Below the pieces are notes generated by a model. That model had not been told where the DNA came from, made no database searches, and was given only the letters and a program-made list of their open reading frames with translations. The translations under genes and the position numbers were made by a program. Below, one piece after another: positions 1,721-22,336 of a stretch of DNA of 64,000 nucleotides. Position 1 is the stretch's first letter. Each line of letters opens with the position of its first letter. Source of the stretch: a virus; the IMG/VR virus record IMGVR_UViG_3300037245_001077, positions 64,001 to 128,000 of that record. One strand, given 5' to 3'.

Positions 1721-4700
1721 AAAACGTAGGAGGTAAGATGACGGTTGATGAACTAAGAGAAGCCCTCATGTACATGGACTCGGACGCAGAGGTGTTACTG
1801 ACTGATGGTGTTCATTTCCTGCGTAGATTTGCTATTGACCGAATGGAAACAGATAACGCTAATTCTGTGCATAAAGTCCCTCCTGTTGTCCTTGTGGCTA
1901 AAGAACCTCCTGAAGTCCCTTGGTGGGATGAAGCTCATCGGGAAGAGCATGGATATTAACACCTTCGATGATGTGGAGAAGTTCTTGGATAAGTTCCAAG
2001 ATCCCACACGTGAGGAAGAACTCATCCTAGAGACATTAGGTATCGATCCTACTGGAATTCAGATTTATTTCATGCGTAGACTACTAATGAAGACTTACCG
2101 TTATGGTAAAGAGCATGGATATGCTGGATCGTTGGATGTGATACGGAGGAGATGATGATGGGTTGGGATAGACTAGAAAACAGATATAGGGCAATAGTGT
2201 TGGCCGTAGTAGTTGTGCTCGGGGGAGCTAGTATACTTGTAGCTATCGCCATGACGTTCAACTGGCACCTACACAGGGCTTCTGTAGAGGAGTTCATGGC
2301 TAAGGAAGCGGGTGAGCACCAGAAGCTTATTGCAGAGCATGAGGTTGACTGTCCTGCTCTAAAGGGTGATACTCATTACGTTATCTTGACGGAAGAGGAG
2401 ATAGCTTTGAGGAATACTGCCAGGGTAAAGCGAGTAGAGTTTATTCGGCACGCTAGTGAGGCTTTGGGGGCTGAGTGGGAGGAACCTGACGTGAGGAGAT
2501 TTATCATGTATGGAGAACCGTTAGAATAATGACTACAATCATTATAACCCTGTTGGTAGTGTTCGTTCTTGGGGTTGCATTAATAAGTGTTGGTAAACAA
2601 TTACTTACGAGCCTTGTAACCGCGATCATACACATCAGGGAGGAACGAAAGTGAGCGATCTACCAGAGCTGTTACAGATAGTGTGGGAAGACTTTAAGGC
2701 ATCAGACGACTCGTATATGTGGCGTGTGGTGCTTTTTGGCGTTTTAGTAATTTCGGTCATAGGGATAGTGGGGTTAGCTATTTATGCCGCATAAAGATGG
2801 GAAATGGTATATCATGGGGCGCGAGGGTGTTGAGGTCTCAGGCACGCGAGGTAAGTCAAAGGATGAGACCACAAGTAAGCTCTGCGAGCAGATGGATATG
2901 CTGGATGGTATCCATCACGATTGGATCTTCTGGAGTAAGCGAGGGTATAAGCTCCGAAAGGACTAGTATGAAGCTGACACTCAACAGGCTATGGTTCTAC
3001 GCGGAGATTGCAGACGAGTGTAGATACCTGGCCGAAGACTTCAATAACGTCGTTAAACGGTACGACATAGACTTCAGGGTTAGTGATACTGAAGATGTCT
3101 TTGTGAACATGAAAGACAAGCTCATAGAGATCACTGGGAGCTATACGACGTATAACTCAGGTGGGTACGCCGACTACCAAGATTACACCATTCAGATCCC
3201 TTTTGGGTTTATTGAAGACCCAATAGAGTGGCAAGATGAATGGGAAGAGAAGCAGCATCAGGAGATGCTGGATAAGATCCAGAAAAAGGTTGAGGACAAG
3301 CGGAAGAAAGAAGATAGCCTTGAGGCCCACGACAGGGCCGAGTATGAGCGTTTGAGGGAGAAGTATGAAGATCTATGAGGGAGTACCTAAACATGTTGAT
3401 GAGTTGGTGGCTATGACGTGTGATAGGTGTGGTCGTAAAGCAAAGGTTAGTGATGTCGCGCTGATCAACAACTTTCAGACCATCACGGCTGTAGGGGCCT
3501 ACGGCTCTGAGCTGATTGGAGACCTAAGGAAGGTGGAAGTAGACTTATGTGAGAGCTGCTTTGACGCTACTCTTGGCCCTTACTGGAAAGTGGTTGAAGA
3601 GTGTGTGGACATGGGAGGGATATGAGAATTGCAGAACGTCAGATCTGGTATCTGTTGAATACCCTTAGAGATACGTTGACTATCGAGGGGGGGATATTTT
3701 CGGTCTCTCGGGAGTCACGGTTGGCTCTTTACAACGATATCATCAACCAACAGCCCAACGTAATCAGGGAATTTGTTGACAATACCGAGCTTTGTGTGGT
3801 ACAACAAGAGGGTGATGAAAAAGGAGAGTCCAATGCAGTTACAGAAGACGACCAATAAGGCTAAGATTGTGAACGTGAAGCCTTTGAAGAAGGGCACCAA
3901 GGTCCAGTGGTCCTCACAGGCCGGTGGTATGCGTACCACGAAGACCGGGACCATTGTATGCGTGTTGAAGAAGGACACGAACTACTACGGGGGTAATAGC
4001 TTTCCGCAGAACTTCATGATCCCGTTTTTCCGTGAGCGCCATAATGACACTATTGCAGAAGCACAAGTGCAATTTGCCGAGGGGAATGTGTGGAAGAATG
4101 AGTGGGCGATGCAATCCGTGTATCGCATGAAGTTTGACCTTCGTGGTGAGATGTATCGTAATACCGTGCATTATCTTGTAGCTGTAGAGCAAGGTCACGG
4201 ACAGAAGCCGCATTTGTATCACCCGGCGAATTACACGGCGCTCAAGGTTGTGAAGTAGTTGTTCCTTCTTTGATTCCTTCCTTTTCGAGGAACACTTCTT
4301 CGGCCCGCACGGGCGTTATGACCTCGTGCGGGTTTTTGTTAAGGAGACAAGGTGACCAATTACCACTATCGCAAGTATGAAGGCGCTCCTCATAGTGAGA
4401 AGAAGCGCCACGCCGCTCAACCCCCCTCCAAGCTGGGTCCGAGAAAGACTTCACATGATCGTCCTGTTCGACACATTAAGAGTCTCTCCTCTCTAGCCCC
4501 TCATGATAGTCGATGGTGGTGGTCGTCGCGTAAACGCTCCTCCCCCATCAATCCTCATGTAGGCTACCCGCTATCCACCTATCAGCTCTACAGCGCAGCA
4601 GAGCACGTTATACGTCGCCTGAAGGCTAATTTGATAGAGGACACTACTCTTAAGATCTATTGGGTAGAGGCGCAGGCTACTCATGCTCAACTCACTCCAG

Positions 4701-6290: not shown

Positions 6291-8683
6291 GGTACCTGGA
6301 GATGTGGAGTTGTGCCATGAGTGATTTCAAAGGAACCCTTGTTGTGACTATGCGATTCGACATACCTGTGCGTGCAGGTATGTACCAAACGGTGTTGAAG
6401 GAGAAGGGCGTAGTAACGCCTGACGATATCATTCGCATCGAAGAGCAGAATTACCTGGACAATGCGGACGACTACCTTGAGATCATGGGGGATCATGTGT
6501 CTGAAGTGTCATTTGATTTTCTGCCAGAGTCGAAAGGGGTAAAGCGTGAGTGACGATCTGTTGATTGACGATGATGAGTTGCTACCGGGTGAACTTGCTT
6601 TCACTTCTGCGGATCTCGAACGGCAAATAACAGACTTAACTGCGGTTTTGAAAAGGAAAGACGAGGAAGCCGAGCGTAGCTTGACTCAACTTCAACTCGA
6701 CGCTAACGCTGAGTATAAGCTGATAGTGAAAGAGCGACAGATGATTGAGGAGGAGCTAAATACTCTCAAAACCAACTTTGGGCGGTTAGAGGTAGAGGGC
6801 GAGAATATAAGTCTCGAAGGTAAACAGGTATTTGACCGTCTCGTGGAATTGGATAAAGAACGCATGATTGGGGTTCTGGCTATCCGCTTTCTCGCTCGAC
6901 GGATATCTGATGGTTTGATTTCTGTAGGTGCCTTACCCAATATCGACAAGAATATCTATGTGGCTCTTAGGGCGTGGGCAGAGAAAGCCACACCCCCCTT
7001 CTTTGAGGATGGCTGGCCCGAGGACAAGGCTCTTGGTGAGATACTAATGGAGATGTTTAAGGTTACTGGTACAACAGGTTCATATGCAAACATGTCTGGA
7101 AGGATCCAAGAGCTATTGACAGAGGATGAGAGCGAAGACTTCCAGAAGTACATGGACAAGGTACCGATTATTGACCCTCTTGGTATTACGAGTAAGACGG
7201 CTAGGCTGTACGCGAAGATTTCCCCTGAACTGGCAGGTGTCATACCTAAAGCACAAAGCTGGAAGCCTAGGGGGGCAGATGATATTTGAATGTGCAACTG
7301 ATGGATGTACAACTAAAACAGAGCGTAGAAGCCCTAGGCACAAGTACTGTGATGTATGTGCAACTAAAAGGAAGACCGACTATAATAAGGTTTGGTATGA
7401 AACTATTGGTGCTGAATGGAAGAGGATAAACTACTTAGAGAGCCGAGGGGGTATCCTTGTTACACCTAGAACACCGGAAGCTAAAGAGAAGACTAGACAA
7501 AGAGCTTTGAAAAGACACAGAGAGTACCAACAGCGGCCTGAGGTTAGAGAAAGACGTAAAAAATATGAGCAGCGGGCTAAAGTAGAGGAGCGTAATATTG
7601 GTTTGAGGGCAGAAATTATTGTTCTCCGCAGAGAACGCCGTCTTCAAGAGGAACGTGACGGTGGGAGACGTTTTTTTAGACGAAGAGCTAAAATTAGTGA
7701 GCCATATCTGCCAAAGCACCTTATATGGGGAAAGCCAGAAGAGGATGAAGTATCGTGAGCAAATCACAGGTTAGTAAGGAGCAGGTGGAGCACTTACATA
7801 AGAGTTGGCGCGGTAGGGGTGGGCGCAGTTCTCTGTATAACCTTGCTAAGAGACATGGAATAACCCTCAATGAAGCTTACGTGATTTTGAGTAGTCCCTT
7901 GCACGCTGCCACGAAGAGAGTGGAGATGGGGAAGAAGTTCGTGTCCTACAGGGAGAGATAATGCGAATCAAGGTCAATTGGTTTGTACGCTTCGTGGCTA
8001 AGGTGGCTAGAGTTGATCTTGATAGCTACGCCTGTGAGGACAAGAAGGACAAGAAGAGAGGCAGTGTAGACTTCAGTAAGGTAATGGCACAGCCGTTGCT
8101 ACCTCCCCGGCTTCAGTCAGACCTTAAGAGGATCATAGAGGAACAAGCAGAGCTAGCTGAGAAAATCACGGGGGTTAACCAACCACATACGGGAAGATCA
8201 CTAACGCAGGCTGGACAATGGAATGAAACAACCTTCACGGTTGGTACGGCTGAGGATCCCCAAGAGCTGTTAGAGAACATCTACTGGCCTGTGACTAAGG
8301 GTAATGGCCCTGGTGAGGTTACAGTAGACCCGTTGTCACAGGCGCGTGAGGATGCCCTTGAGGAGATCAATAGGCAGTACGCTATCCCTAAGGAGCTATG
8401 GGATAAGTTCAGGACTGAGGAGCAGATGGGGAAGTACTACCGGGAGCAGTTAGAGGAGTACATCCTTGCTAACGCACAGTCCGATGCCCCTCCACGTACT
8501 ACAGCGAAAGAGTATGCCGAGGTGGTGTATAGAGCCTTACAGAGAATGAGTGGTGTAGAGACTCCTCCCCGGCTTCAGTTCTCCCCCACACAGGACAAGC
8601 TGATAATCAGCCCTCCTCCGCCTGATCTAGAAGATGATTTGGGCGTAGATGGATGCGAGATACCAGAAGAGATGTTTGATTAG

Positions 8684-9010
8684 TATTATGTTATGTATAC
8701 ACATGACATAGTTATTAACTATAGAACTTCTTTGTTTTCAGCCACTTACAAAAAGCCATGTCAGTTTTGTATATAAACGTACTTGCAGTATGTCCAATTT
8801 ACCGAGGTTACCCGGCGTTATAAGGGTATTTTATTACATAAAATGCATTTAATGTTATTATGTGTATGAGTTACAATGATTATAATCTGTAAGTTCTTTA
8901 GAATCAAGAGGTTAAAAAGTAATAAATACTACATTTAAGATACATAAGGTTTATAAGCCCGGATAACCTACATAGTTATCGTTCATTAGATGCTTTTAGT
9001 GCGAATCAAA
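8684..9010. other. AT-rich non-coding region
   Basis: No ORF, clearly more AT-rich than flanks, with degenerate inverted repeats. Confidence 0.6.
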
Positions 9011-9017
9011 AATGAGT

Positions 9018-9091
9018 ACCCCTGTAGCTCAATGGTAGAGCGTGGTCCTTATAAGGCCGTGACCCGAGTTCAACTCTCGGCAGGGGTACCA
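9018..9091 (+). tRNA. tRNA-Ile(TAT)
   Basis: Cloverleaf ACCCCTG/CAGGGGT, anticodon loop CT-TAT-AA, encoded CCA. Confidence 0.9.
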
Positions 9092-9092
9092 C

Positions 9093-9122
9093 TTGACAAC
9101 TTCGATACTTAGGTGGTATCGT
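9093..9122 (+). promoter_or_regulatory. sigma70-type promoter for tmRNA
   Basis: TTGACA-18 nt-TATCGT with TG extension. Confidence 0.55.
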
Positions 9123-9144
9123 GTTCCTAGCTTATACAGCACGA

Positions 9145-9175
9145 GGGAGGAAGGACGCGATGCGACCAACCTCCC
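9145..9175 (+). repeat. Conserved hairpin motif, copy 1
   Basis: GGGAGG-[AAGGACGCGATGCGACCAA]-CCTCCC; loop nearly identical to the copy at 10897. Confidence 0.7.
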
Positions 9176-9195
9176 GCCATGGTCTTTCAAAATAT

Positions 9196-9536
9196 GGGGG
9201 CGCACTGGTTTTGACAGGGATGTTTGACGAGAGGGAGAAGCGTGTCGTGTTTGCTTTCGGCGTTAACGAAGGCTACTCGTTTAGTTGACGAATTTGAACA
9301 ACTACCCTTAGCGGCATAGTTCCGCTAACGTGGTCCTAGAAACTCCACCTATCTGGAGACCACGCTATTAGGTGGGCTGAGGTTTCCGTGCTCCATTTGC
9401 AGAGGAAGGCGTAAAGCTCATGTAGGTTAACTTCCTCATCTTAAAAGTAGGGCTTGCTTGAGCCTATCAAGCTACACACGTAGAAGGCTCTTAGATCCTT
9501 CCTTGGACGTGGGTTCGATTCCCACCGCCTCCACCA
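9196..9536 (+). ncRNA. ssrA: tmRNA, tag (A)DEFEQLPLAA*
   Basis: 5' GGGGGCG pairs with 3' CGCCTCC-ACCA (G3.U70), T-arm GGTTCGATTCC, tag ORF 9287-9319 ending LAA-stop. Confidence 0.95.
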
Positions 9537-9554
9537 ATTTTTTAAGGAGACAAG

Positions 9555-9872
9555 ATGAAGTTAATCACACAAATTCCCGAGGTAGGTATCCTTCCGAATG
9601 GTTTGTGGTGGAAGTATGTCCCCGTAAGGGATGATTTTTTTCATTTCGCTATAGGTTTTTGTTGGCGTTGGGGGAAACCCTACTACGATGAGTTTGATAT
9701 GAAGGAGAAGGACTTCTCCAGAGGGTTTCGCACGTCTTTACGATTGGTGAAAAAAGGTAGAGAGTATCGACTTATTCCTGAGCTTTTCTTTTGGGAAGAA
9801 GGCCAACAGTATGGGACGAAGCAGTGGTTTGATCGTAAGCTTTGGAGAACGACCGAAAAAATATCGGATTAG
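9555..9872 (+). CDS. Hypothetical protein
   Basis: SD AAGGAG, aromatic-rich 105 aa. Confidence 0.6.
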   Translation: MKLITQIPEVGILPNGLWWKYVPVRDDFFHFAIGFCWRWGKPYYDEFDMKEKDFSRGFRTSLRLVKKGREYRLIPELFFWEEGQQYGTKQWFDRKLWRTTEKISD

Positions 9873-9875
9873 GGG

Positions 9876-9904
9876 TTGACAAATCCTAAAACATATCCGA
9901 TACT
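9876..9904 (+). promoter_or_regulatory. sigma70-type promoter for the large ncRNA
   Basis: TTGACA-17 nt-GATACT, followed by boxA-like GATCTTTGACA. Confidence 0.65.
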
Positions 9905-9949
9905 AACTACCTTGCATGTAAATGCAACGATCTTTGACATTCAGGATAT

Positions 9950-10815
9950 GGCCACATGGGGTCATTAAGGAAACAGGGGAGTAATCCCCTGGAAGGGGTA
10001 ACGAGAGTGTTACGCTCGCCCACCTATCTTCGGGTAGGCCCATCCATGAGAATCGCGGGTAGCCCGAGCCACGGGTGGGTACGTGTGCCCTAACCTGAGG
10101 AGCAAGGTGATTGTACGGTGGTGCTAGATAAGGGACAAACCGGGTCTTCGGGCCACAAGGTAGCTCTTATCGATTCCTAGCAGGGATGCTAGGTAATCAT
10201 CGATCCAATTGTGAATCAGGCCACTCCTAAGCGATAGATACCTTAGTCCGAGGAAATGGCAAACCTAGGGCGGGGTAGCAGTACCATTGAGGTTTGGGCG
10301 GAATTCCCAAAAATCAAGAAGTACGGGTAAAGGGACAGCTAGTCTCGAATGCCAGGGCGCGTGTTGTATTTTGTGGCTCAAAAGGCTACGAAGCGATGGA
10401 CAGGGCACGAACCCAGTGACATTATCACCGTGAAATTCGCCTAATAGCAAGGCGTTTGGCCTTAGGACCAAAAGATGAGGGTGCAATTCCTTCATTTCAC
10501 TTCAAAACGATAAGGAAAGTCCCTGTCGGTCGCTAAGCGAAAGGGGCCTAAGCCTCTCCCCGCAAGGGAAGGGAGGCCACCGAAGCTCCCAAGGCTGAAA
10601 GTGGTCAATGTGGAAATGAAGACCTTGAGACGGCCATCTCAGGACGGACTGGAAACATCGAGTCGCGGAGCGATGACGAAGGAAATGCTACCTTCTTAAA
10701 AAAGCGGTCCTGGTCGAATACTGGAGAGATCCGGTGGATAAGTTGTTAACTGAAGGATGGAACCTTAGGGTACGGCAACAAAAGGTTGACCACAATAATG
10801 GGTAGTCTCACCATT
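9950..10815 (+). ncRNA. Large structured ncRNA, probably GOLLD family
   Basis: ~860 nt with no credible ORF, many GNRA/UUCG hairpins, own promoter, tRNA-array context and nested tRNA-like domain. Segments GTGTTGTATTTTGTGGCTCAAAAGG and terminal GTAGTCTCA resemble GOLLD as I recall it. Ends approximate. Confidence 0.7.
10430..10501 (+). ncRNA. tRNA-like domain nested in the large ncRNA
   Basis: Acceptor GTGAAAT/ATTTCAC, D-stem GCCT/AGGC, anticodon stem TTTGG/CCAAA with 8-nt loop CCTTAGGA, T-arm GAGGG-TGCAATT-CCTTC, no CCA. Confidence 0.75.
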
Positions 10816-10896
10816 TTCTTTTATTCTCTACCAGTGGTAGGGAATCTTCAAAGGCTCGGTGGTGCCCGCCTGGACGAAACCACCCTATTTTGTCCC

Positions 10897-10929
10897 TAGC
10901 GGGAAGAACGCGATGCGCCTAACCCGCTA
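10897..10929 (+). repeat. Conserved hairpin motif, copy 2
   Basis: TAGCGGG-[AAGAACGCGATGCGCCTAA]-CCCGCTA. Confidence 0.7.
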
Positions 10930-10946
10930 AATTTTGGTTGTAGTGT

Positions 10947-11021
10947 CGCGGAGTGTAGCAGCGGTAGCTAAGCTGGCTCATAACCAGATGGTCGGGGGTT
11001 CGAATCCCCCCTCCGCAACCA
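10947..11021 (+). tRNA. tRNA-Met(CAT), initiator-like
   Basis: Loop CT-CAT-AA, C1xA72 mismatch, CCA; only two of the three initiator G-C anticodon-stem pairs. Confidence 0.9.
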
Positions 11022-11070
11022 AGTTTAGGGGGTGTTCTTTCACCCCTTTTCTTTATTGTCTGGAGAGAGT

Positions 11071-11223
11071 ATGACCCGCAACGCTTTGATCCAGGCTATT
11101 ATCGAGATGGTTACATCTTCTTTACCCAAGAAGATAACGTTGACCAAGAAGATTGGCAAGGATTTGTGGGTAACGGATACGAAGAGAATGCTCGCCCTTA
11201 TGAAGAAGAAGAGGAAGAAGTAA
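11071..11223 (+). CDS. Basic protein, MTREE-motif family
   Basis: MTRNALIQAIIE start after GGAG; Lys-rich body. Confidence 0.65.
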   Translation: MTRNALIQAIIEMVTSSLPKKITLTKKIGKDLWVTDTKRMLALMKKKRKK

Positions 11224-11224
11224 C

Positions 11225-11590
11225 ATGACCCGCGAAGAGCTTACCGAAGCCATTGTTGAAGCAGTTATCGGTTCGCACGAGGCGGGTGTAGCTATCAATA
11301 CCATGTACAACCAGCATCCAAAGCTCTTTAAGAAAATAAACAAGTGGGAATCAGGGAAACGACGGCGTTTGCAGGTTATGAGAAAATTACGGTTGTCTAA
11401 GGATGACGATTTTGATATTAATGATAAGGCGGTAAGCCACTCTACACGCAAAGCGCATAAGTGGTTGTCTAAACGAAAGAATCCGTTAAATCGGACGTTT
11501 CAGGATCGGGTAAAGGCCGTAACTCGTAAGCCTTCAAAGCAAGTAGCGAAGGACGCGCATTACAATATGCGTTCTAGAATGACTTATTAG
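11225..11590 (+). CDS. Basic protein, MTREE-motif family
   Basis: MTREELTEAIVE then K/R-rich body. Confidence 0.75.
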   Translation: MTREELTEAIVEAVIGSHEAGVAINTMYNQHPKLFKKINKWESGKRRRLQVMRKLRLSKDDDFDINDKAVSHSTRKAHKWLSKRKNPLNRTFQDRVKAVTRKPSKQVAKDAHYNMRSRMTY

Positions 11591-11600
11591 AGGAAATAAC

Positions 11601-11642
11601 ATGTTCGTGACAACGATTAAAACCGAGGAGGAAAAGATCTAG
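11601..11642 (+). CDS. Attenuator leader peptide 1 MFVTTIKTEEEKI
   Basis: SD GAGGA; 10 of 12 non-start codons are Thr/Ile/Lys/Glu, the amino acids of the downstream tRNAs. Confidence 0.85.
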   Translation: MFVTTIKTEEEKI

Positions 11643-11647
11643 GATAG

Positions 11648-11698
11648 CCCTGGACATACCTTCGGTGTATCTCCAGGGACCGTAAGGTCTCTTTTTTT
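11648..11698 (+). terminator. Attenuator 1: antiterminator CCCTGGA/TCCAGGG overlapping terminator GGGACC-GTAA-GGTCTC-T7
   Basis: Both hairpins need GGG 11676-11678. Confidence 0.8.
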
Positions 11699-11708
11699 GT
11701 GTCTATGA

Positions 11709-11782
11709 GCCGGTGTAGCATAATGGCAATGCGCGTCTCTTGTAAAGACGGAGATCCAGTTCAACTCTGGCATCCGGCTCCA
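11709..11782 (+). tRNA. tRNA-Thr(TGT)
   Basis: CGTCT-CT-TGT-AA-AGACG, CCA; slightly irregular acceptor/T junction. Confidence 0.85.
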
Positions 11783-11787
11783 ATATT

Positions 11788-11862
11788 CACCCTGTAGAAC
11801 AATGGTCAGTTTACCGGGCTTTCAACCCGATGATCGGGGTTCAACTCCCCGCAGGGTGACCA
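11788..11862 (+). tRNA. tRNA-Glu(TTC)
   Basis: Loop CT-TTC-AA, CACCCTG/CAGGGTG, CCA. Confidence 0.9.
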
Positions 11863-11866
11863 ACTT

Positions 11867-11942
11867 GGCGGTGTCTGCTAACGGTTAGGCAACATGGTTC
11901 TCACCCATGAAATGGCGGGTTCGATTCCCCCCACCGTCACCA
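11867..11942 (+). tRNA. tRNA-Glu(CTC)
   Basis: CATGG-TT-CTC-AC-CCATG, CCA. Confidence 0.9.
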
Positions 11943-11954
11943 TAGGAGATCAAC

Positions 11955-12107
11955 ATGAACGGCGACCGAAACGACAAGATGTCCGAACTCATGCGAGCAA
12001 TTCGCTGGGGGTGGGACTGTATGTACCCTGTCCGTATCAAGGGTAGTGAGAAACGTCGTTTGCGTCGAAAATACCGTCACGATGCTAAACGTGAGATAGC
12101 CCTGTAG
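11955..12107 (+). CDS. 50-aa basic ORF inside tRNA operon 1
   Basis: SD AGGAG; MNGDRNDKMSELMRAIRWGWDC...; stop codon lies inside the 5' end of tRNA-Ile. Confidence 0.5.
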   Translation: MNGDRNDKMSELMRAIRWGWDCMYPVRIKGSEKRRLRRKYRHDAKREIAL

Positions 12108-12172
12108 CTCAGTGGTAGAGCAGAGGGTCGATAACCCTCGTGTCCGTGGTTCGAATCCACGTGGGGCTACCA
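12098..12172 (+). tRNA. tRNA-Ile(GAT)
   Basis: GAGGG-TC-GAT-AA-CCCTC, CCA. Confidence 0.92.
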
Positions 12173-12179
12173 TTTACAC

Positions 12180-12255
12180 ACCCCCATGACGCAACTGGCA
12201 GCGTAGCTGGCTCTTAACCAGTATGTTGAAGGTTCGACTCCTTCTGGGGGTACCA
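12180..12255 (+). tRNA. tRNA-Lys(CTT)
   Basis: Loop CT-CTT-AA, CCA. Confidence 0.92.
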
Positions 12256-12258
12256 TGT

Positions 12259-12333
12259 GGGATCGTGGCGCAATGGAAGCGCAACAGGCTTTTAACCTGA
12301 ATGTTGAGAGTTCGAGTCTCTCCGGTCCCACCA
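12259..12333 (+). tRNA. tRNA-Lys(TTT)
   Basis: Loop CT-TTT-AA, CCA. Confidence 0.92.
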
Positions 12334-12365
12334 CCTTCTTCCTTCTTTATTTCTTGGGAGATGCT

Positions 12366-12599
12366 ATGACCCGAGAAGAACTTATTGAAGCCATTGTTGA
12401 AGTGATGCAGCGAAGTAAACATCCTCTAACGGGTGGTCATTTCAGTTTTCCTCCTCCTATGAAAACAAGAGCAGGGCAGTGGACAAGACGGAAGCGTTTG
12501 AGGGTTGTTTCTGGTGCTATGACAGGTAAAGACCCTAGCATAACGAAATCTATGGCTTTTGCTTCTGAAATAGCTCGAAGAAAACGAGCAAACAAATAG
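12366..12599 (+). CDS. Basic protein, MTREE-motif family
   Basis: MTREELIEAIVE; start re-assigned to 12366 (SD GGGAG). Confidence 0.75.
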   Translation: MTREELIEAIVEVMQRSKHPLTGGHFSFPPPMKTRAGQWTRRKRLRVVSGAMTGKDPSITKSMAFASEIARRKRANK

Positions 12600-12610
12600 A
12601 GGATTAAAAT

Positions 12611-12844
12611 ATGACCCGTGAAGAGATTATTGAAGCCATTATCCTTACTGAGTTCGAGCCTTTGACTATGATTGCTGCTGGTGCGGCTACTGGTTACGCG
12701 GCTAGAAAGTTGAGAAACCGTTATAGCGTTAAAGGAGCCACAGGTGCGGCTAAGAGAAGTTCGGCTATCTCGAAGGCATATGCGAAGAAGGCTGAGCGGC
12801 ATACCGCAAGGGCAAAGTTCCTTACTGCTAGAAAGAACGCATAA
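12611..12844 (+). CDS. Basic protein, MTREE-motif family
   Basis: MTREEIIEAIILTE, Ala/Gly segment, basic tail. Confidence 0.75.
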   Translation: MTREEIIEAIILTEFEPLTMIAAGAATGYAARKLRNRYSVKGATGAAKRSSAISKAYAKKAERHTARAKFLTARKNA

Positions 12845-13944
12845 TGACCCGAGATAAGATTATTGAAGATATTGTTGAAGGCTACGTCAAAGATGTGCTC
12901 ACTTACGATTTGAGTAAGCATCATCCTAGACCCCATGAGCGCTTCCGCTTCAACAACGCAGCCCGTAAAGCCAAAGAGAAGGCACGGGAAGTGTTTAGGA
13001 ACAAAGCCAAGAGCGCACATGATACTCAACCTATTGACGTTTCCAAGTTTGTATCCAAATCTACAGCTCGTAGGGCACCGGGGATCAAAGTCCCCAAAAG
13101 CTATCGCCCTAAACTTAAGATGAGTTCAGCTAGGCGAAAGGGTCCAACCGTTCGCCAACAGCAGGGCAGAAAAGCAGTGTTGGGTGCAGCGGCAGCTATT
13201 GGTGCGGGTATGGTGGCTCATAAGGCGTACAAGTACCATAAGGCCAAAAAGAAAAGAGAGATGCGTGAAGGCTTGATTGAGGCCCTTTCTACTCATAAGG
13301 TCTACAAGGCTAGGATGTTTTCAAAGAAGCCACAATCTTATGCTAAAACAATGACTTATTGGCAAACTCCAGAACAGAAGAGTTTAAAAGCTGTTAAGAA
13401 AAAGATTCCCGTGGTTTCTTTAGAGTTAAGGAGTAAAAAGGATAAGTCTACCCATCAGGTGTCGCTTGCTCCAGATCCTCGTAAGAGGCTTTGGGGGAAA
13501 TTGGCAAAGATGCAGGGGTTTGACCCTAAATCAAAGAAAGCAACGCTTAAACGACGGGCGTTTTATCGTTTGCGTAAGAACAAGTACAAGGTTGTTGAGG
13601 GTGACCTAGGGGACTTCGCTGTAGCCCCAACCGCAGCCGTAGACGCTTCCCCGATCCATAAAGAGCAGAGGGATCGGTATTGGATGATCAAGAACCGTAA
13701 GAAGATCAAGAACATGATAGTGAAAGAGGTTTTTGACGACACCTATGGTTCGAGCGTGCTTGACCGAGCAGCACGGGTGGAAAAATCTACAAACTTTATT
13801 GCTAAGGCGAAAAAGCTTAAAAGCCTTGTTGGTAAGGCGAGAAAGCTTACTAAGGATTATGAGCTTGGTATGTACCACGGTGCGGGCAAAATGTCTAAGA
13901 TGAATATCTCTTTGGGTAACAAAAAATTTGGGAAGATAGGGTAG
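12844..13944 (+). CDS. Long basic protein, MTREE-motif family
   Basis: MTRDKIIEDIVE plus internal MREGLIEAL. Confidence 0.75.
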   Translation: MTRDKIIEDIVEGYVKDVLTYDLSKHHPRPHERFRFNNAARKAKEKAREVFRNKAKSAHDTQPIDVSKFVSKSTARRAPGIKVPKSYRPKLKMSSARRKGPTVRQQQGRKAVLGAAAAIGAGMVAHKAYKYHKAKKKREMREGLIEALSTHKVYKARMFSKKPQSYAKTMTYWQTPEQKSLKAVKKKIPVVSLELRSKKDKSTHQVSLAPDPRKRLWGKLAKMQGFDPKSKKATLKRRAFYRLRKNKYKVVEGDLGDFAVAPTAAVDASPIHKEQRDRYWMIKNRKKIKNMIVKEVFDDTYGSSVLDRAARVEKSTNFIAKAKKLKSLVGKARKLTKDYELGMYHGAGKMSKMNISLGNKKFGKIG

Positions 13945-13952
13945 GGGTTAAC

Positions 13953-14225
13953 ATGACACGCGAAGAAGTGATTGAAGCCATTGTATACGAGATGACGCAA
14001 GAGAAAAAAGATAAGTGGAAGTCTCGTGCCAAGAAAACTGCAATCGGGGCTGGTATAATTGGAGTAGGTGTTCTTGCTACGAAAGCTCCTAAAGCTAAGC
14101 GTTATCATGCTTTAGGTAAAAAGGTGTCTTCTACGGTGGATAGTAGCGCTTACAGACAAGCTTTGGTTTCTAAGAACAAATATGGATTGCATGTTGACAA
14201 ATACTATGGTTCTTCTTCTTTTTAA
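13953..14225 (+). CDS. Basic protein, MTREE-motif family
   Basis: MTREEVIEAIVYE. Confidence 0.75.
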   Translation: MTREEVIEAIVYEMTQEKKDKWKSRAKKTAIGAGIIGVGVLATKAPKAKRYHALGKKVSSTVDSSAYRQALVSKNKYGLHVDKYYGSSSF

Positions 14226-14228
14226 GGC

Positions 14229-14257
14229 TTGACAACGGTAACAAAAGATGCCATACT
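14229..14257 (+). promoter_or_regulatory. sigma70-type promoter of tRNA operon 2
   Basis: TTGACA-17 nt-CATACT with TG extension. Confidence 0.75.
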
Positions 14258-14266
14258 AAATCAGTA

Positions 14267-14326
14267 ATGAAGAATTTTCTATATACCCTCGTTGATTGTG
14301 TAGCCCACTTTGATAGTTGGCTTTAG
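14267..14326 (+). CDS. Attenuator leader peptide 2 MKNFLYTLVDCVAHFDSWL
   Basis: Contains all 8 amino acids (D,L,A,H,C,Y,F,V) of the downstream tRNAs; ATG 9 nt after the -10 box. Confidence 0.85.
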   Translation: MKNFLYTLVDCVAHFDSWL

Positions 14327-14377
14327 GGGGGTTTTTGTCTTTTCGTCTTTGACACCCCCTGCACAAGGGGGTTTTTT
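14325..14377 (+). terminator. Attenuator 2: antiterminator AGGGGG..TGTC/GACACCCCCT versus terminator ACCCCCT-GCACA-AGGGGGT-T5
   Basis: The C-run 14355-14359 can pair with either G-run. Confidence 0.8.
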
Positions 14378-14384
14378 AGTATTC

Positions 14385-14461
14385 GGGGGTGTAGTCTAGT
14401 AGAGTAAGGCCCTGGATTGTCAGTCCAGTGATCGCCGGTTCGAGTCCGGTCACTCCCGCCA
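14385..14461 (+). tRNA. tRNA-Asp(GTC)
   Basis: CTGGA-TT-GTC-AG-TCCAG, G73, CCA. Confidence 0.92.
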
Positions 14462-14481
14462 AGTTCTTTGAAAATTAGTGT

Positions 14482-14566
14482 GCTGAGGTGGCGAAGTTGG
14501 TAGACGCGCTGGTCTTAGGAACCAGTGTCTTCGGGCGTGTGGGTTCGAATCCCTCCCTCAGCACCA
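14482..14566 (+). tRNA. tRNA-Leu(TAG)
   Basis: CTGGT-CT-TAG-GA-ACCAG, long variable arm, CCA. Confidence 0.92.
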
Positions 14567-14577
14567 AAATATCGTGT

Positions 14578-14653
14578 GGGCTGTCATGTTCCAAGGGGGC
14601 GAGGAGCACTTGCAATGCACCTGTGGAGGGTTCGATTCCCTTGCGGTCCACCA
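14578..14653 (+). tRNA. tRNA-Ala(TGC)
   Basis: Loop CT-TGC-AA, G3.U70, atypical D arm, CCA. Confidence 0.85.
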
Positions 14654-14657
14654 AGTT

Positions 14658-14731
14658 GTGAGGGTAGTGTAATGGCAGCACGAGAGTTTGTGGCACTCTC
14701 AGAGCGGATTCAAATTCCGTCCCTCACCCCA
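14658..14731 (+). tRNA. tRNA-His(GTG)
   Basis: AGAGT-TT-GTG-GC-ACTCT, C73, CCA; G-1 not encoded. Confidence 0.88.
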
Positions 14732-14811
14732 GTTTCGGTTTTGGGGGTCCGACACAGTGTTACAAGCTACCTCAGAGGTAGTTCAAGGGCACTCTACAAA
14801 ATCCCCATTTG

Positions 14812-14885
14812 AGGGTGGTGGCCGAGAGGCTAGGCAGGGGACTGCAAATCCTTTTACGCGGGTTCAAATCCCGCCCACCTTTCCA
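14812..14885 (+). tRNA. tRNA-Cys(GCA)
   Basis: Loop CT-GCA-AA, U73, CCA. Confidence 0.92.
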
Positions 14886-14886
14886 T

Positions 14887-14972
14887 GCCAGTATAGACCT
14901 CTATGGAGGGGGGACGGGTTGTAGCCCCGTTGTTGCAAGGCCCGCAAGGTTCGATTCCTTGTACTGGCACCA
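14887..14972 (+). tRNA. tRNA-Tyr(GTA)
   Basis: ACGGG-TT-GTA-GC-CCCGT, long variable arm, CCA. Confidence 0.88.
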
Positions 14973-14975
14973 TTT

Positions 14976-15051
14976 GCCTCTGTAGCTCAGGTAGTAGAGC
15001 GCGAGACTGAAGATCTCGGCGTCGGGGGTGCAAGTCCTCCTGGGGGCACCA
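14976..15051 (+). tRNA. tRNA-Phe(GAA)
   Basis: CGAGA-CT-GAA-GA-TCTCG, CCA. Confidence 0.9.
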
Positions 15052-15054
15052 TTT

Positions 15055-15130
15055 AGGCAGGTAGCTCAGTTGGTAGAGTTGCTGGTTTACACCCAGTCTG
15101 TCATCGGTTCGAATCCGGTCCTGCCTACCA
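15055..15130 (+). tRNA. tRNA-Val(TAC)
   Basis: Loop TT-TAC-AC, CCA. Confidence 0.92.
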
Positions 15131-15192
15131 TTCACTTTATTGTTTGGGGTATGTATGTTTCGTGAAGATTATTTTATAAAACGGGATAAAAT

Positions 15193-16068
15193 ATGACGGA
15201 TAGAAATTTAGATTATGACTATGCTGCAAAGCAACGAGATATTACTCGTGAGCAGTATGCTAAAGGAACATATATTTATGCTGGTTATAGTCCTGCAACA
15301 CCTTTAGTGTGGAATGTTGAGGATCAGCCGATTGGCTCAGGTGCTCCGGCAAACGTGTTTGACGCCTGGGGCGAGGACTTGGAGGTCCGGGCGATCCCTG
15401 TGGATGGGAAAGAGCCGCTGACGCCGTTCACCAAGGAGCTTCATGCAAAAACAGGGAACCCTGGATATCTCTATGGGCTGTACTTCACATTATTGCTCGA
15501 TGGTTTTGATATTGATTTGAATAATGGTAAATTCCGGGTTGAAATTGTGGCTCGGCATGTTGTCCCAGATCCAGAATTTCAGCCCGGTCAATACTTACAG
15601 CTTGGTGAGGACGACTATTACCCAGAATGGGATACGTGGCGCATGTTCAAAGCCGGGTTTCTTTCTGAAGAGTCCGGCGAAAGTGATGTTCAATCTTGGC
15701 ATTGGGAGTTTGGTGGTGAACTATATAATTCGTTCTATGACTACAAGGTAAACTGGGAGTTCGGAACACCAATTGTCGGATACACTATCCACCAGATCGA
15801 GGTGGATTTCCAAGCTGGCGTGTTCGAGCAACGCATCGTTGGTCATTGGGCAGGAGATCAAGGAGAGCAATCATCTTGGTGGGTTAAGGCTCCTCGCGCC
15901 GCTGAATTTCCGGCTGGAGAACAGTCAGCACAGACGCTCATATTATGGCTTCAAGATAAAAACAGCGGAGAGGCGATGGTTACTCAGCTTTGGCTTGGCC
16001 CAATTACTGACCCATTCCCAAATGGCGCGGTTTTGACATCGAATATCGGGTTTGGAAATAGTTCTTGA
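15193..16068 (+). CDS. Hypothetical aromatic-rich protein (possible virion/lectin-like)
   Basis: 291-aa ORF between tRNA operons, W/Y/F-rich. Confidence 0.6.
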   Translation: MTDRNLDYDYAAKQRDITREQYAKGTYIYAGYSPATPLVWNVEDQPIGSGAPANVFDAWGEDLEVRAIPVDGKEPLTPFTKELHAKTGNPGYLYGLYFTLLLDGFDIDLNNGKFRVEIVARHVVPDPEFQPGQYLQLGEDDYYPEWDTWRMFKAGFLSEESGESDVQSWHWEFGGELYNSFYDYKVNWEFGTPIVGYTIHQIEVDFQAGVFEQRIVGHWAGDQGEQSSWWVKAPRAAEFPAGEQSAQTLILWLQDKNSGEAMVTQLWLGPITDPFPNGAVLTSNIGFGNSS

Positions 16069-16093
16069 CAAGCCCTTTATTGGGTGTTAGAGT
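16065..16093 (+). promoter_or_regulatory. sigma70-type promoter of tRNA operon 3
   Basis: TTGACA-17 nt-TAGAGT with TG extension. Confidence 0.75.
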
Positions 16094-16102
16094 GATTAAG
16101 TT

Positions 16103-16171
16103 ATGAAGAGATTATCCTCAAGGTTGTGGCAACAGAGCGGCTCGAATCCGAGTCGCCCAGGAGAGCTGTAA
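16103..16171 (+). CDS. Attenuator leader peptide 3 MKRLSSRLWQQSGSNPSRPGEL
   Basis: Has a codon readable by each of the 12 downstream tRNAs; all 21 non-start sense codons differ. Confidence 0.9.
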   Translation: MKRLSSRLWQQSGSNPSRPGEL

Positions 16172-16236
16172 CTAAGGGGTAAAGATGCCAATTCGCCCGT
16201 TCCGTTCTTACCCCCTAGTACAGTAGGGGGTTTTTT
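16172..16236 (+). terminator. Attenuator 3: antiterminator CTAAGGGGTAAAGA/TCTTACCCCCTAG versus terminator ACCCCCTA-GTACAG-TAGGGGGT-T5
   Basis: Shared C-run 16211-16215. Confidence 0.85.
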
Positions 16237-16246
16237 ATTGATCTAA

Positions 16247-16258
16247 GTTCTTTGAAAA
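16247..16258 (+). promoter_or_regulatory. boxA-like antitermination site
   Basis: GTTCTTTGAAAA; identical copy at 14463-14474. Confidence 0.6.
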
Positions 16259-16271
16259 CAAAAAGTTATGT

Positions 16272-16348
16272 CCGAGAATGGCGCAGTTTGGCAGCGCACT
16301 TGGTTTGGGACCAAGGTGTCGAAGGTTCAAATCCTTCTTCTCGGACCA
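16272..16348 (+). tRNA. tRNA-Pro(TGG)
   Basis: CTTGG-TT-TGG-GA-CCAAG, CCA. Confidence 0.92.
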
Positions 16349-16349
16349 T

Positions 16350-16434
16350 GGAAGGTACCGTCTATGGAGACAAGCGGTTTTGAACACCGTAGGCACGTGT
16401 AAGCGCGGGGGTTCGATTCCTCTACCTTCCTCCA
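16350..16434 (+). tRNA. tRNA-Ser(TGA)
   Basis: Loop TT-TGA-AC, long variable arm, CCA. Confidence 0.88.
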
Positions 16435-16444
16435 AGTTGTGTGT

Positions 16445-16519
16445 TCGGGCATGGTGTTAGTGGTAGCATACGAGGTTTCCACCCTCTGGGGCCGGGTTCG
16501 AGTCCTGGTGCCCGAACCA
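16445..16519 (+). tRNA. tRNA-Gly(TCC)
   Basis: Loop TT-TCC-AC, CCA. Confidence 0.88.
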
Positions 16520-16529
16520 AAATTTATGT

Positions 16530-16603
16530 AGGGGTATAGTGAAATGGTATCACGGCAGATTCCAGACCTGCTTTTCCGGGTTCAAATCCTGGTACCTCTG
16601 CCA
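16530..16603 (+). tRNA. tRNA-Trp(CCA)
   Basis: Loop TT-CCA-GA, G73, CCA. Confidence 0.88.
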
Positions 16604-16609
16604 AAGATT

Positions 16610-16698
16610 GGAAGGGTGGCTGAGTGGTAACAGCGCCGGGTTGCTAACCCGAGGCCGCGCTTCGGCGTGCGAGGGTTCGATCCCCTCTCCTTCCTCCA
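16610..16698 (+). tRNA. tRNA-Ser(GCT)
   Basis: Loop TT-GCT-AA, long variable arm, CCA. Confidence 0.92.
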
Positions 16699-16704
16699 AG
16701 TGTT

Positions 16705-16808
16705 GAACGGTGTGGCGTGGCAGCGTCAGGTTTTCCGTTAAGGAGATCATCCCTCCACTGCCTAATCGGAGAATGATGGGAGCTGGGTGGGGAATCCAGC
16801 CACCGTTC
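16705..16808 (+). ncRNA. Putative ~105-nt structured RNA of unknown class
   Basis: Closed by GAACGGTG/CACCGTTC, occupies a slot between two tRNAs. Confidence 0.5.
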
Positions 16809-16818
16809 ACTTTTTTGA

Positions 16819-16895
16819 GGCCCTGTAGCTCAGCGAACAGAGCATATGGCTACGAACCATAGTTGTCGGGGGTTTGAATCCCTCCAGGGCTTCCA
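16819..16895 (+). tRNA. tRNA-Arg(ACG)
   Basis: TATGG-CT-ACG-AA-CCATA, CCA. Confidence 0.92.
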
Positions 16896-16898
16896 TTT

Positions 16899-16974
16899 GC
16901 ACCCGTGGTCTAATGGCAAAGGCACTGCGTTTCTACCGCAGCAGATGTGGGTTCGACTCCTACCGGGTGTTCCA
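16899..16974 (+). tRNA. tRNA-Arg(TCT)
   Basis: CTGCG-TT-TCT-AC-CGCAG, CCA. Confidence 0.92.
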
Positions 16975-16984
16975 AAACTTATTC

Positions 16985-17063
16985 GGCACGGTAGCTTAGC
17001 ATGGCCTAAAGCAGTAGTTTGTTAAACTAATGATCGTAGGTTCAAATCCTACCTGTGCCGCCA
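16985..17063 (+). tRNA. tRNA-Asn(GTT)
   Basis: Loop TT-GTT-AA, G73, CCA. Confidence 0.9.
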
Positions 17064-17069
17064 AATTTT

Positions 17070-17156
17070 GCTGGAGTGGCTGGAATTGGTATACGCAGGG
17101 GACTTAAAATCCCTGGCCGAAAGGTCGTGTGGGTTCGACTCCCACCTCCAGCACCA
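17070..17156 (+). tRNA. tRNA-Leu(TAA)
   Basis: Loop CT-TAA-AA, long variable arm, CCA. Confidence 0.92.
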
Positions 17157-17161
17157 GCTAT

Positions 17162-17238
17162 GCCGCTCTGGGCCAATTGGTAGAGTCGGGGGTCTCAAAA
17201 GCCCTTTGTTCCGAGTTCGAATCTCGGGGGCGGCACCA
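17162..17238 (+). tRNA. tRNA-Leu(CAA), short variable loop
   Basis: Loop CT-CAA-AA, A73, CCA, only a 5-nt variable region. Confidence 0.85.
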
Positions 17239-17241
17239 TTT

Positions 17242-17317
17242 AGCGGAGTAGCTCAATTGGTAGAGCACTGGACTCTGAATTCAGTTGTTGTAGGTTCAAA
17301 CCCTACCTCCGCTGCCA
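17242..17317 (+). tRNA. tRNA-Gln(CTG)
   Basis: Loop CT-CTG-AA, CCA. Confidence 0.92.
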
Positions 17318-17392
17318 TTTTGATTGCAGAAACTGACACTTTTTGGTAGGTTACGCGAATGAAAAGCACTGTTTGTGGTCATAATGACTACT

Positions 17393-17468
17393 AGGGGAGT
17401 AGCTCAATTGGTGGAGCAACAGGCTTTGAACCTGTTGGATGTGAGTTCGAACCTCACCTCCCCTTCCA
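17393..17468 (+). tRNA. tRNA-Gln(TTG)
   Basis: ACAGG-CT-TTG-AA-CCTGT, CCA. Confidence 0.92.
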
Positions 17469-17693
17469 TGTATACTTTATTGAAGGCCATGTGTGCTATG
17501 GACACTTTTATCGTTTTGCTAATTGGGGTTGTCGCTTTGATAGCGATTGCTATGGGGTTGAGTGACCGATACTCTCCTCCTTGTCCGAAATGTGGAAAGG
17601 GTCTTAAGATTCTAGGAGCAGACTATCTATGTATCTCGTGTGACAGGGTTTACTCAGAGGATGAAATTCCAACTTAGTTGTGGCTGCAAAGGC

Positions 17694-17722
17694 TTGACAA
17701 ACAACCCTACACCATCTATGAT
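17694..17722 (+). promoter_or_regulatory. sigma70-type promoter
   Basis: TTGACA-17 nt-TATGAT. Confidence 0.75.
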
Positions 17723-17810
17723 TCTAGTGCTATGACAACTGGAATTCTTCACCAATCTATTCATTTGCCCGCCTCTTTAGGTGGGCCTTGCTGTTTAAGG
17801 AGGAAAAACA

Positions 17811-18194
17811 ATGAAGTTGTATGTTTTGTTTGAGCAACCGGATGAAACGTATCCGGGGCAGTATGCGCCGTTAGCCGTTACGGTACTCGATGAGTACACT
17901 GTGGATAATTCCGGAAGATCGCTTCACGAGGCTCAGGAGGCAGAACTTGCTCGTCTTTCTATGAAGGAAGGGTTTGATCCTACAGATGCTAAGTGGGCCT
18001 GGGTTGAGGTGGATCTTGGTGTGACTGAACAGTTGATCCGAGATGCTATTCTTCAGCCTGCCCTCGCTGTCCAAGGTGTAGTAGCAGTTCCGGCTGCTCC
18101 TCAAGGGCAGAAACACCCTTCTTATCAGGCCATTACCGTGACTAGAGGAAGGCCAGGAGCAGGAAGAATTGTTGACGATGAAATTGTGGAGTAA
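17811..18194 (+). CDS. Hypothetical protein
   Basis: Strong SD TAAGGAGG. Confidence 0.7.
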   Translation: MKLYVLFEQPDETYPGQYAPLAVTVLDEYTVDNSGRSLHEAQEAELARLSMKEGFDPTDAKWAWVEVDLGVTEQLIRDAILQPALAVQGVVAVPAAPQGQKHPSYQAITVTRGRPGAGRIVDDEIVE

Positions 18195-18197
18195 CCC

Positions 18198-18500
18198 ATG
18201 CCCAAGTATAAACGTTATGGGTATGTGGTGGTGGAAAGGTTCTCAAAGCCTTTCGGATTAGTGGCATGTACAAATGTTGGCTTTCACCTTAATCCCCAAA
18301 AAGCGCAGGAACAGGTTGATGCTATAATCGAGTCCGCTGGAGAGGGTAAAGTCGTTGCAGATGAAACAGTTACAGGCAAAGACGATTTTGTCCCCTCTAT
18401 CCGTCGTCATGTCTTAATTGAATACCCTGGTCACGAGACTCTCCAGGTTCTCATCCAGCGATGGTATGTGGAGGTTGGGAGAGATCGCCATGGGGGATAG
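18198..18500 (+). CDS. Hypothetical protein
   Basis: SD GGAG, operon position. Confidence 0.6.
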   Translation: MPKYKRYGYVVVERFSKPFGLVACTNVGFHLNPQKAQEQVDAIIESAGEGKVVADETVTGKDDFVPSIRRHVLIEYPGHETLQVLIQRWYVEVGRDRHGG

Positions 18501-22300: not shown

Positions 22301-22336
22301 CTTGACACCCTACATTATAAGAGTATGATAAGATTC

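Follow-up and report, generated by a model that had tools for sequence, protein, structure and literature searches.

Leader-peptide attenuation is a textbook mechanism for amino-acid operons and for one aminoacyl-tRNA synthetase operon, pheST. In the enterobacterial amino-acid systems (thrL with its Thr and Ile codons, the ilvGMEDA leader with its Ile, Val and Leu codons, trpL, hisL and pheL) the leader is a short ORF with many regulatory codons whose stop codon adjoins region 2, mutually exclusive hairpins follow, and the U-tract of the terminator lies just before the first regulated gene. The pheST operon, which encodes phenylalanyl-tRNA synthetase and has the pheM leader, is likewise placed under leader-peptide control by the decoding of its own codons. 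T-box riboswitches likewise make read-through of an intrinsic terminator depend on the status of a tRNA, but they do so without translation, binding uncharged tRNA through a specifier loop and the T-box sequence. Our full-text literature searches found no report of leader-peptide attenuation that controls tRNA genes or that is used by phages.

Here we describe a candidate for such control of phage tRNA genes. The window that was analysed is a stretch of 64,000 nucleotides, bases 64001-128000 of the 176,533-bp IMG/VR record of an uncultured phage; a near-identical stretch is present in one marine-sediment metagenome run, and among the runs listed for this phage there is no RNA run. The 27 tRNA genes of the record, together with its tmRNA gene, all fall inside window positions 9018-17468, and 25 of these tRNAs are grouped in three blocks, here also called operons 1 to 3:

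11709-12333: tRNA block 1, with Thr, Glu (two), Ile and Lys (two)
14385-15130, plus strand: tRNA block 2, the putatively regulated operon, with Asp-GTC, Leu-TAG, a tRNA-Ala-like element, His-GTG, Cys-GCA, Tyr-GTA, Phe-GAA and Val-TAC
14577-14650, plus strand: the tRNA-Ala-like element of block 2, scoring 19 bits with the tRNA-Sec model
16272-17468: tRNA block 3, with 12 tRNAs

ARAGORN and Rfam together give seven confident tRNAs in operon 2 (Asp, Leu-TAG, His, Cys, Tyr, Phe and Val). The remaining gene, 'Ala' at 14577-14650, is called neither by ARAGORN nor by the Rfam tRNA model; by eye it has a G3:U70 pair, a CUUGCAA anticodon loop, a good T arm and a poor or degenerate D arm. We treat it as tRNA-like only, and as doubtful as a tRNA. 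Spacers within the blocks vary among relatives: the 80 nt between tRNA-His and tRNA-Cys (14732-14811) are missing in a relative from run X2, where 14731 is joined to 14812, and the 117-nt spacer 16699-16815 is missing in relatives from three runs.

An earlier note on this DNA had proposed an attenuator ahead of operon 2, here attenuator 2, built of a promoter, a leader ORF, a G-run next to its stop codon and a terminator. Each of these elements was found in place when read from the sequence:

14229-14257, plus strand: sigma-70-type promoter, with TTGACA at 14229-14234, a 17-nt spacer and an extended -10 element TGcCATACT (CATACT at 14252-14257)
14267-14326, plus strand: leader ORF of 19 codons encoding MKNFLYTLVDCVAHFDSWL, with ATG at 14267 and the stop codon TAG at 14324-14326
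14285-14301, plus strand: region 1 (speculative), ACCCUC and UUGUGU, able to pair with the G-run or else with the terminator loop and 3' arm
14326-14339, plus strand: region 2, GGGGGGU(UUUU)GUC, the predicted 5' strand of the antiterminator (duplex -12.8 to -14.9 kcal/mol, P = 0.001-0.002)
14351-14372, plus strand: region 3/4, GAC followed by an intrinsic terminator of -12.8 kcal/mol (ACCCCCT at 14354-60, loop GCACA, AGGGGGT at 14366-72)
14372-14377, plus strand: T6 tract of the terminator

The promoter agrees with the consensus at 10 of 12 positions in addition to its extended -10 TG. The G6 run (14326-14331) opens with the last G of the TAG stop codon and continues into T5 and then GTC (14337-39), which an 11-nt U-rich loop separates from the complementary GAC at 14351-53. 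The tRNA-Asp gene starts at 14385, 7 nt past the terminator T-run, and because this gap is too short to hold a promoter, operon 2 can be expressed only by read-through of the terminator. These elements support the view that, at the level of sequence, attenuator 2 is built as a ribosome-mediated attenuator would be.

Attenuator 2 shares with the enterobacterial amino-acid attenuators its short leader enriched in regulatory codons, its stop codon beside region 2, its mutually exclusive hairpins and its U-tract just before the first gene, and the helix energies are of similar size as well. There are also clear differences. Those attenuators regulate biosynthetic enzymes, whereas the genes downstream of attenuator 2 are tRNAs, they are encoded by a phage, and the mRNA would be near-leaderless; and where amino-acid leaders carry runs of codons for one or two amino acids, this leader samples seven or eight tRNAs, mostly once each. 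The pheST system resembles attenuator 2 in that a component of the translation apparatus would be controlled, but in pheST it is a synthetase gene, answering to a single amino acid, in a cellular genome. T-boxes resemble it in linking tRNA status to a terminator, but the signal at attenuator 2 is frame-specific within an ORF (below). A T-box riboswitch was considered and rejected, as RF00230 has no match at E <= 1 in 8000-18500; Rfam likewise gave no cis-regulatory match at attenuator 2 at that threshold over that range, and the proteins encoded nearby have no Pfam or PHROG matches.

We consider it moderately probable that attenuator 2 is a multivalent leader-peptide attenuator in the style of trp and thr, one that responds to the supply of the same tRNAs whose genes it governs. 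Host RNA polymerase would initiate at the sigma-70 promoter, and a ribosome would load onto the near-leaderless 19-codon ORF. A fast ribosome would reach the TAG and cover the G-run (region 2), the ACCCCCU:AGGGGGU hairpin would form, and transcription would stop 7 nt before tRNA-Asp. Were the tRNAs scarce or uncharged, the ribosome would stall at codons 4-16 and leave the G-run free to capture ACCCCCU first, which would block the terminator and allow transcription of the Asp-Leu-(Ala)-His-Cys-Tyr-Phe-Val tRNA genes. The new tRNAs would in turn quicken decoding of the leader and switch the operon off again. The output would in this way relieve the stall directly, closing a feedback loop on decoding capacity, whereas the loop in amino-acid operons is on amino-acid supply.

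The leader codons bear directly on this proposal. The leader had been said to cover all eight amino acids of the operon; this holds for the seven confirmed tRNAs, every one of which (7/7) has a standard-wobble cognate codon among the 18 non-start codons, but the eighth is the tRNA-like element only. In a Monte Carlo test in which that element was taken as an eighth tRNA (7/8 covered), random leaders drawn with phage codon usage matched the real one in ~0.4% of trials (P ~0.004). We also compared the leader with every ORF in the whole genome that starts with ATG and has 10-25 non-start codons, 1468 in number: four of these cover operon 2 fully, and leader 2 has the highest cognate fraction of the four. 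The match is to its own operon, with 13/18 codons cognate under a family-box reading plus Ala (9/18 under strict wobble), against 1-2/18 for operon 1 and 3/18 for operon 3. It is also confined to one frame. Cognate codons number 9/18 in frame versus 4/18 and 3/18 out of frame, and tRNA coverage is 7/7 in frame versus 3/7 in each of the other two, a confinement that favours translation over RNA-level complementarity. The codons GCC, CTC and ACC are poor matches or non-matches (GCC being weak for a UGC anticodon), and the preference of the leader for U-ending codons is indistinguishable from the genome bias.

Position within the leader matters as well. Under an assumed ribosome footprint reaching from -15 to +12 of the A-site, stalls at codons 4-16 free the G-run, while a ribosome that has reached codons 17-19 or the stop covers it. 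Apart from T7, each codon of the 4-16 stretch (F L Y T L V D C V A H F D) is cognate, and the non-cognate K2, N3, S17 and W18 all lie outside this stall window; the concentration of cognate codons inside it has a Fisher P of 0.015 under strict wobble and 0.008 under the family-box reading. These tests support a codon/tRNA match that is real, frame-specific and in the right stall window, and from it we infer that the ORF is translated and that ribosomes can stall within it. With one or two codons per tRNA, the leader may respond only weakly to any one of them.

A possible objection is that this is a chance small ORF before an ordinary leaky terminator or insulator, with the tRNAs made by constitutive partial read-through from a strong promoter. 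Leader 2 taken alone leaves some room for this, since its strict-wobble cognate fraction is only moderately significant (P = 0.02). The objection weakens when the phage's other two tRNA operons are considered, because each is preceded by a leader and terminator of the same architecture:

11601-11699, plus strand: sister attenuator 1, with leader MFVTTIKTEEEKI and an SD, before Thr, Glu (two), Ile and Lys (two)
11648-54 and 11672-78, plus strand: antiterminator pairing CCCTGGA/TCCAGGG of attenuator 1
11675-11692, plus strand: terminator of attenuator 1, with T7
16065-16237, plus strand: sister attenuator 3, with a promoter and leader MKRLSSRLWQQSGSNPSRPGEL (16103-16171), before 12 tRNAs
16176-82 and 16208-14, plus strand: antiterminator pairing GGGGTAA/TTACCCC of attenuator 3
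16210-16231, plus strand: terminator of attenuator 3, with T6

Leader 1 has 9/12 cognate codons (binomial P 5e-5), covers 6/6 tRNAs and includes the two codons for Glu and the two for Lys; 20 of the 1468 small ORFs equal it. The statistics are stronger at attenuator 3, whose leader has 16/21 cognate codons (binomial P 2e-6) and covers 12/12 tRNAs, the sole ORF among the 1468 to do so and a result reached by 1 in 200,000 Monte Carlo leaders. When the three frequencies (20/1468 x 4/1468 x 1/1468) are multiplied as a rough guide, the probability that three operon-matched leaders occur jointly comes to ~1e-8, which the chance reading does not accommodate, any more than it does the confinement of cognate codons to the productive stall window.

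Pairing potential recurs along with the codons. At attenuator 2 the pairing proposed between the G-run and the CCCCC arm, extended by GUC/GAC, proved to be the minimum free energy fold of 14324-14360, at -13.3 kcal/mol. When the 20 nt that begin with the stop codon are compared with the 13 nt ending in the 5' arm of the terminator, their complementarity is significant not only here (P = 0.001-0.002) but also at attenuators 1 (P = 0.006) and 3 (P = 0.018), again against a chance ORF. One suggested element fared otherwise: the ACCCTC at 14285-14290, put forward as a protector strand, pairs with the G-run at chance level (P = 0.55), a point on the side of the chance reading. A further such point comes from a promoter plus ATGAAGA module pattern, which had nine IMG/VR matches, two of them directly before tRNA clusters (contigs L020 and L023), in neither of which is the codon match significant. 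Weighing the three sites together, we think a chance ORF very unlikely. The two modules, at 4498-4635 of L020 and 3997-4248 (reverse strand) of L023, come from unrelated phages and consist of TTGACA, a 17-nt spacer, a -10 element, 9 nt and ATGAAGA; in L023 a 44-codon ORF and a terminator come next.

Four segments of attenuator 2 resemble each other, ACCCUC (region 1), GGGGGGU (2), ACCCCCU (3) and AGGGGGU (4), and the alternative helices that they can form are close in energy (1:2, -15.3 kcal/mol; 2:3, -13.3 kcal/mol; 3:4, -12.8 kcal/mol). In folds of the naked growing transcript the 1:2 hairpin arises before region 3 emerges; a U-run follows it, and from this modelling the hairpin may be a pause element. 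At equilibrium, the RNA downstream of a stalled ribosome favours the terminator at most stall positions (Pterm 0.69-0.94 for codons 7-16), and the equilibrium ribosome-mask model of attenuator 2 did not reproduce a switch. The naked RNA at equilibrium prefers read-through (Pterm 0.29), through a nested 1:4 plus 2:3 fold. Since the terminator dominates at equilibrium downstream of a stalled ribosome, the attenuator 2 switch would have to be kinetic, with 2:3 forming before region 4 exists. The trp attenuator is also kinetic, its antiterminator being no more stable than its terminator. We infer for attenuator 2 both the kinetic preference for the antiterminator and the regulation that would follow from it. 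The same ribosome-mask folding gives attenuators 1 and 3 mid-leader windows of antitermination (Pterm 0.01-0.2), with Pterm rising to 0.96-0.97 when the ribosome is at the stop codon and standing at 0.8-0.95 for the naked RNA.

That the attenuator 2 terminator is not beaten by its antiterminator at equilibrium, and that its read-through is required anyway, would also suit factor-dependent temporal control, in which the ORF is no sensor and an early terminator is later overridden by an N/Q-like protein or by a boxA/Nus complex of the rrn type, of phage or host origin. This reading can further point to an exact boxA-like 14-mer shared by operons 2 and 3:

14461-14474, plus strand: boxA-like AAGTTCTTTGAAAA, identical at 16245-16258

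Both copies, which resemble the rrn-type boxA, lie within a tRNA operon just downstream of an attenuator (2 and 3). However, because the motifs are downstream of the terminators, a complex loaded at them could not act on the attenuator terminators. No antiterminator protein was identified, and factor-dependent control does not explain why, at three operons, codons and tRNAs match in a frame-specific way, nor why antiterminator strands adjoin the stop codons. We therefore hold it to be rather unlikely, and prefer the leader-peptide attenuator. The 14-mer may have a role of its own, as it could protect the untranslated tRNA operons from Rho. Weaker variants of it occur at 9181, before the tmRNA.

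Translation of leader 2 would have to begin on a near-leaderless mRNA, as the ORF has no SD and its ATG lies 9 nt past the -10 element. Attenuator 3 has this same 9-nt spacing from -10 to ATG, the same start AGTNATGAAGA and no SD, while attenuator 1 has an SD. Two long ORFs of the phage have consensus sigma-70 promoters with the -10 element 6-7 nt before the ATG:

22302-22327 (promoter at 22302) and 22325 (ORF): leaderless-type gene start of a 704-aa protein
109435 in the window (173435 in the genome): leaderless-type gene start of a 195-aa protein

Long phage genes that begin so soon after the -10 box make leaderless initiation in the host plausible.

We looked for the same arrangement in other assemblies. 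A contig of the same phage from an independent JGI assembly (L048) carries attenuator 2 with 100% identity, so that attenuator 2 is no assembly artefact; a contig of run X4 is ~90% identical over 14224-14455. Attenuator 1 has more informative relatives. In the Logan contigs L012 and L013 its leader carries three changes, two synonymous and the third non-synonymous; its terminator stem is kept through one compensatory A-U to G-C change and two G-U/G-C swaps, and its antiterminator stem is kept through a wobble change. Directly after leader 1, L013 has only the Thr and Glu tRNAs and then a protein gene; as the leader is almost unchanged and only these two tRNAs lie directly downstream, this contig does not show co-variation of leader and tRNAs. 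The gene itself, with a promoter, occupies L013:1240-1421, right after tRNA-Thr and tRNA-Glu where the window has more tRNAs, and encodes a Cys-rich protein beginning MKKEKFCCKCSQ, whose Pfam match is uninformative. Its position indicates that tRNA blocks are rearranged between close relatives, and many joints in run X4 agree.

Other searches were less productive. Blastn against GenBank phages for attenuator 2 relatives gave tRNA-level matches only, and exact words from the terminator and tRNA-Phe had no IMG/VR match. The 291-, 366- and 121-aa neighbour proteins found no useful relative in IMG/VR or the JGI metagenomes (homologues of the 291-aa protein were rejected for their different context, as in L002), and the 90-aa upstream protein has no homologue. 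Six relatives by portal (L003-L008) were set aside as comparison genomes, as they carry no tRNAs. As controls, the tRNA clusters of Vibrio phage VCPH and Erwinia phage pEa_SNUABM_4 were run through the same script, which found no codon-matched leader or terminator in either; the pattern is therefore neither a by-product of the method nor universal.

A third alternative is that the ~110-nt unit from promoter to terminator is an independent small gene yielding a micropeptide or small RNA, with its position before the tRNAs incidental or of use in processing. As a transcription unit it is indeed complete, running from a strong promoter to a strong terminator, and liberated attenuator RNAs are known to act in trans, rnTrpL being an example (PMC6614838, PMC7968998). 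Yet the peptide reads as a codon checklist and not as a conserved protein-like sequence, and a back-translated VDCVAHFD pattern brought up no homologous peptide context in the JGI metagenomes, its 23 matches all being rejected as unrelated proteins. Transcription of the tRNAs would moreover be left unexplained. We give little credence to an independent gene as the whole explanation. Such a gene is compatible with attenuation and does not exclude it.

If attenuator 2 does work as a leader-peptide attenuator, then phage tRNA sets would not be passive codon supplements but modules that are regulated by demand and sense the state of decoding in the infected cell; this would bear on why phages carry tRNAs and on how they answer tRNA-targeting defences, and such leaders would be compact natural sensors of individual tRNA pools. 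More tentatively, and with considerable doubt, we suggest that the three codon-checklist leaders are tRNA-depletion sensors, turning their operons on when a subset of host tRNAs is cleaved or short (for example through anticodon-nuclease defences or host shut-off). With the addition of its own tmRNA, the phage would then possess a replacement translation system that regulates itself, and the leaders would make up a class of attenuator whose regulated product is also the tRNA it senses. It had also been remarked that operon 2 holds three of the four tRNA types targeted by colicin E5. The count is right, with 3/4 Q-type tRNAs in the 7-gene block, at a marginal P of 0.047, but it has no functional support.

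Outside the three blocks, no codon-matched leader was found at the tmRNA, at the tRNA-Ile-TAT or tRNA-Met genes, or at a GOLLD RNA nearby. Strong TTGACA promoters lie ahead of the tmRNA (9093) and of the GOLLD region (9876). The GOLLD RNA (Rfam RF02032), at 10354-10814, is full length at 161.5 bits, has a tRNA-like match embedded at 10430-10501, and adjoins the tmRNA (9196-9536, tag DEFEQLPLAA), tRNA-Ile-TAT (9018-9091) and tRNA-Met (10947-11021).
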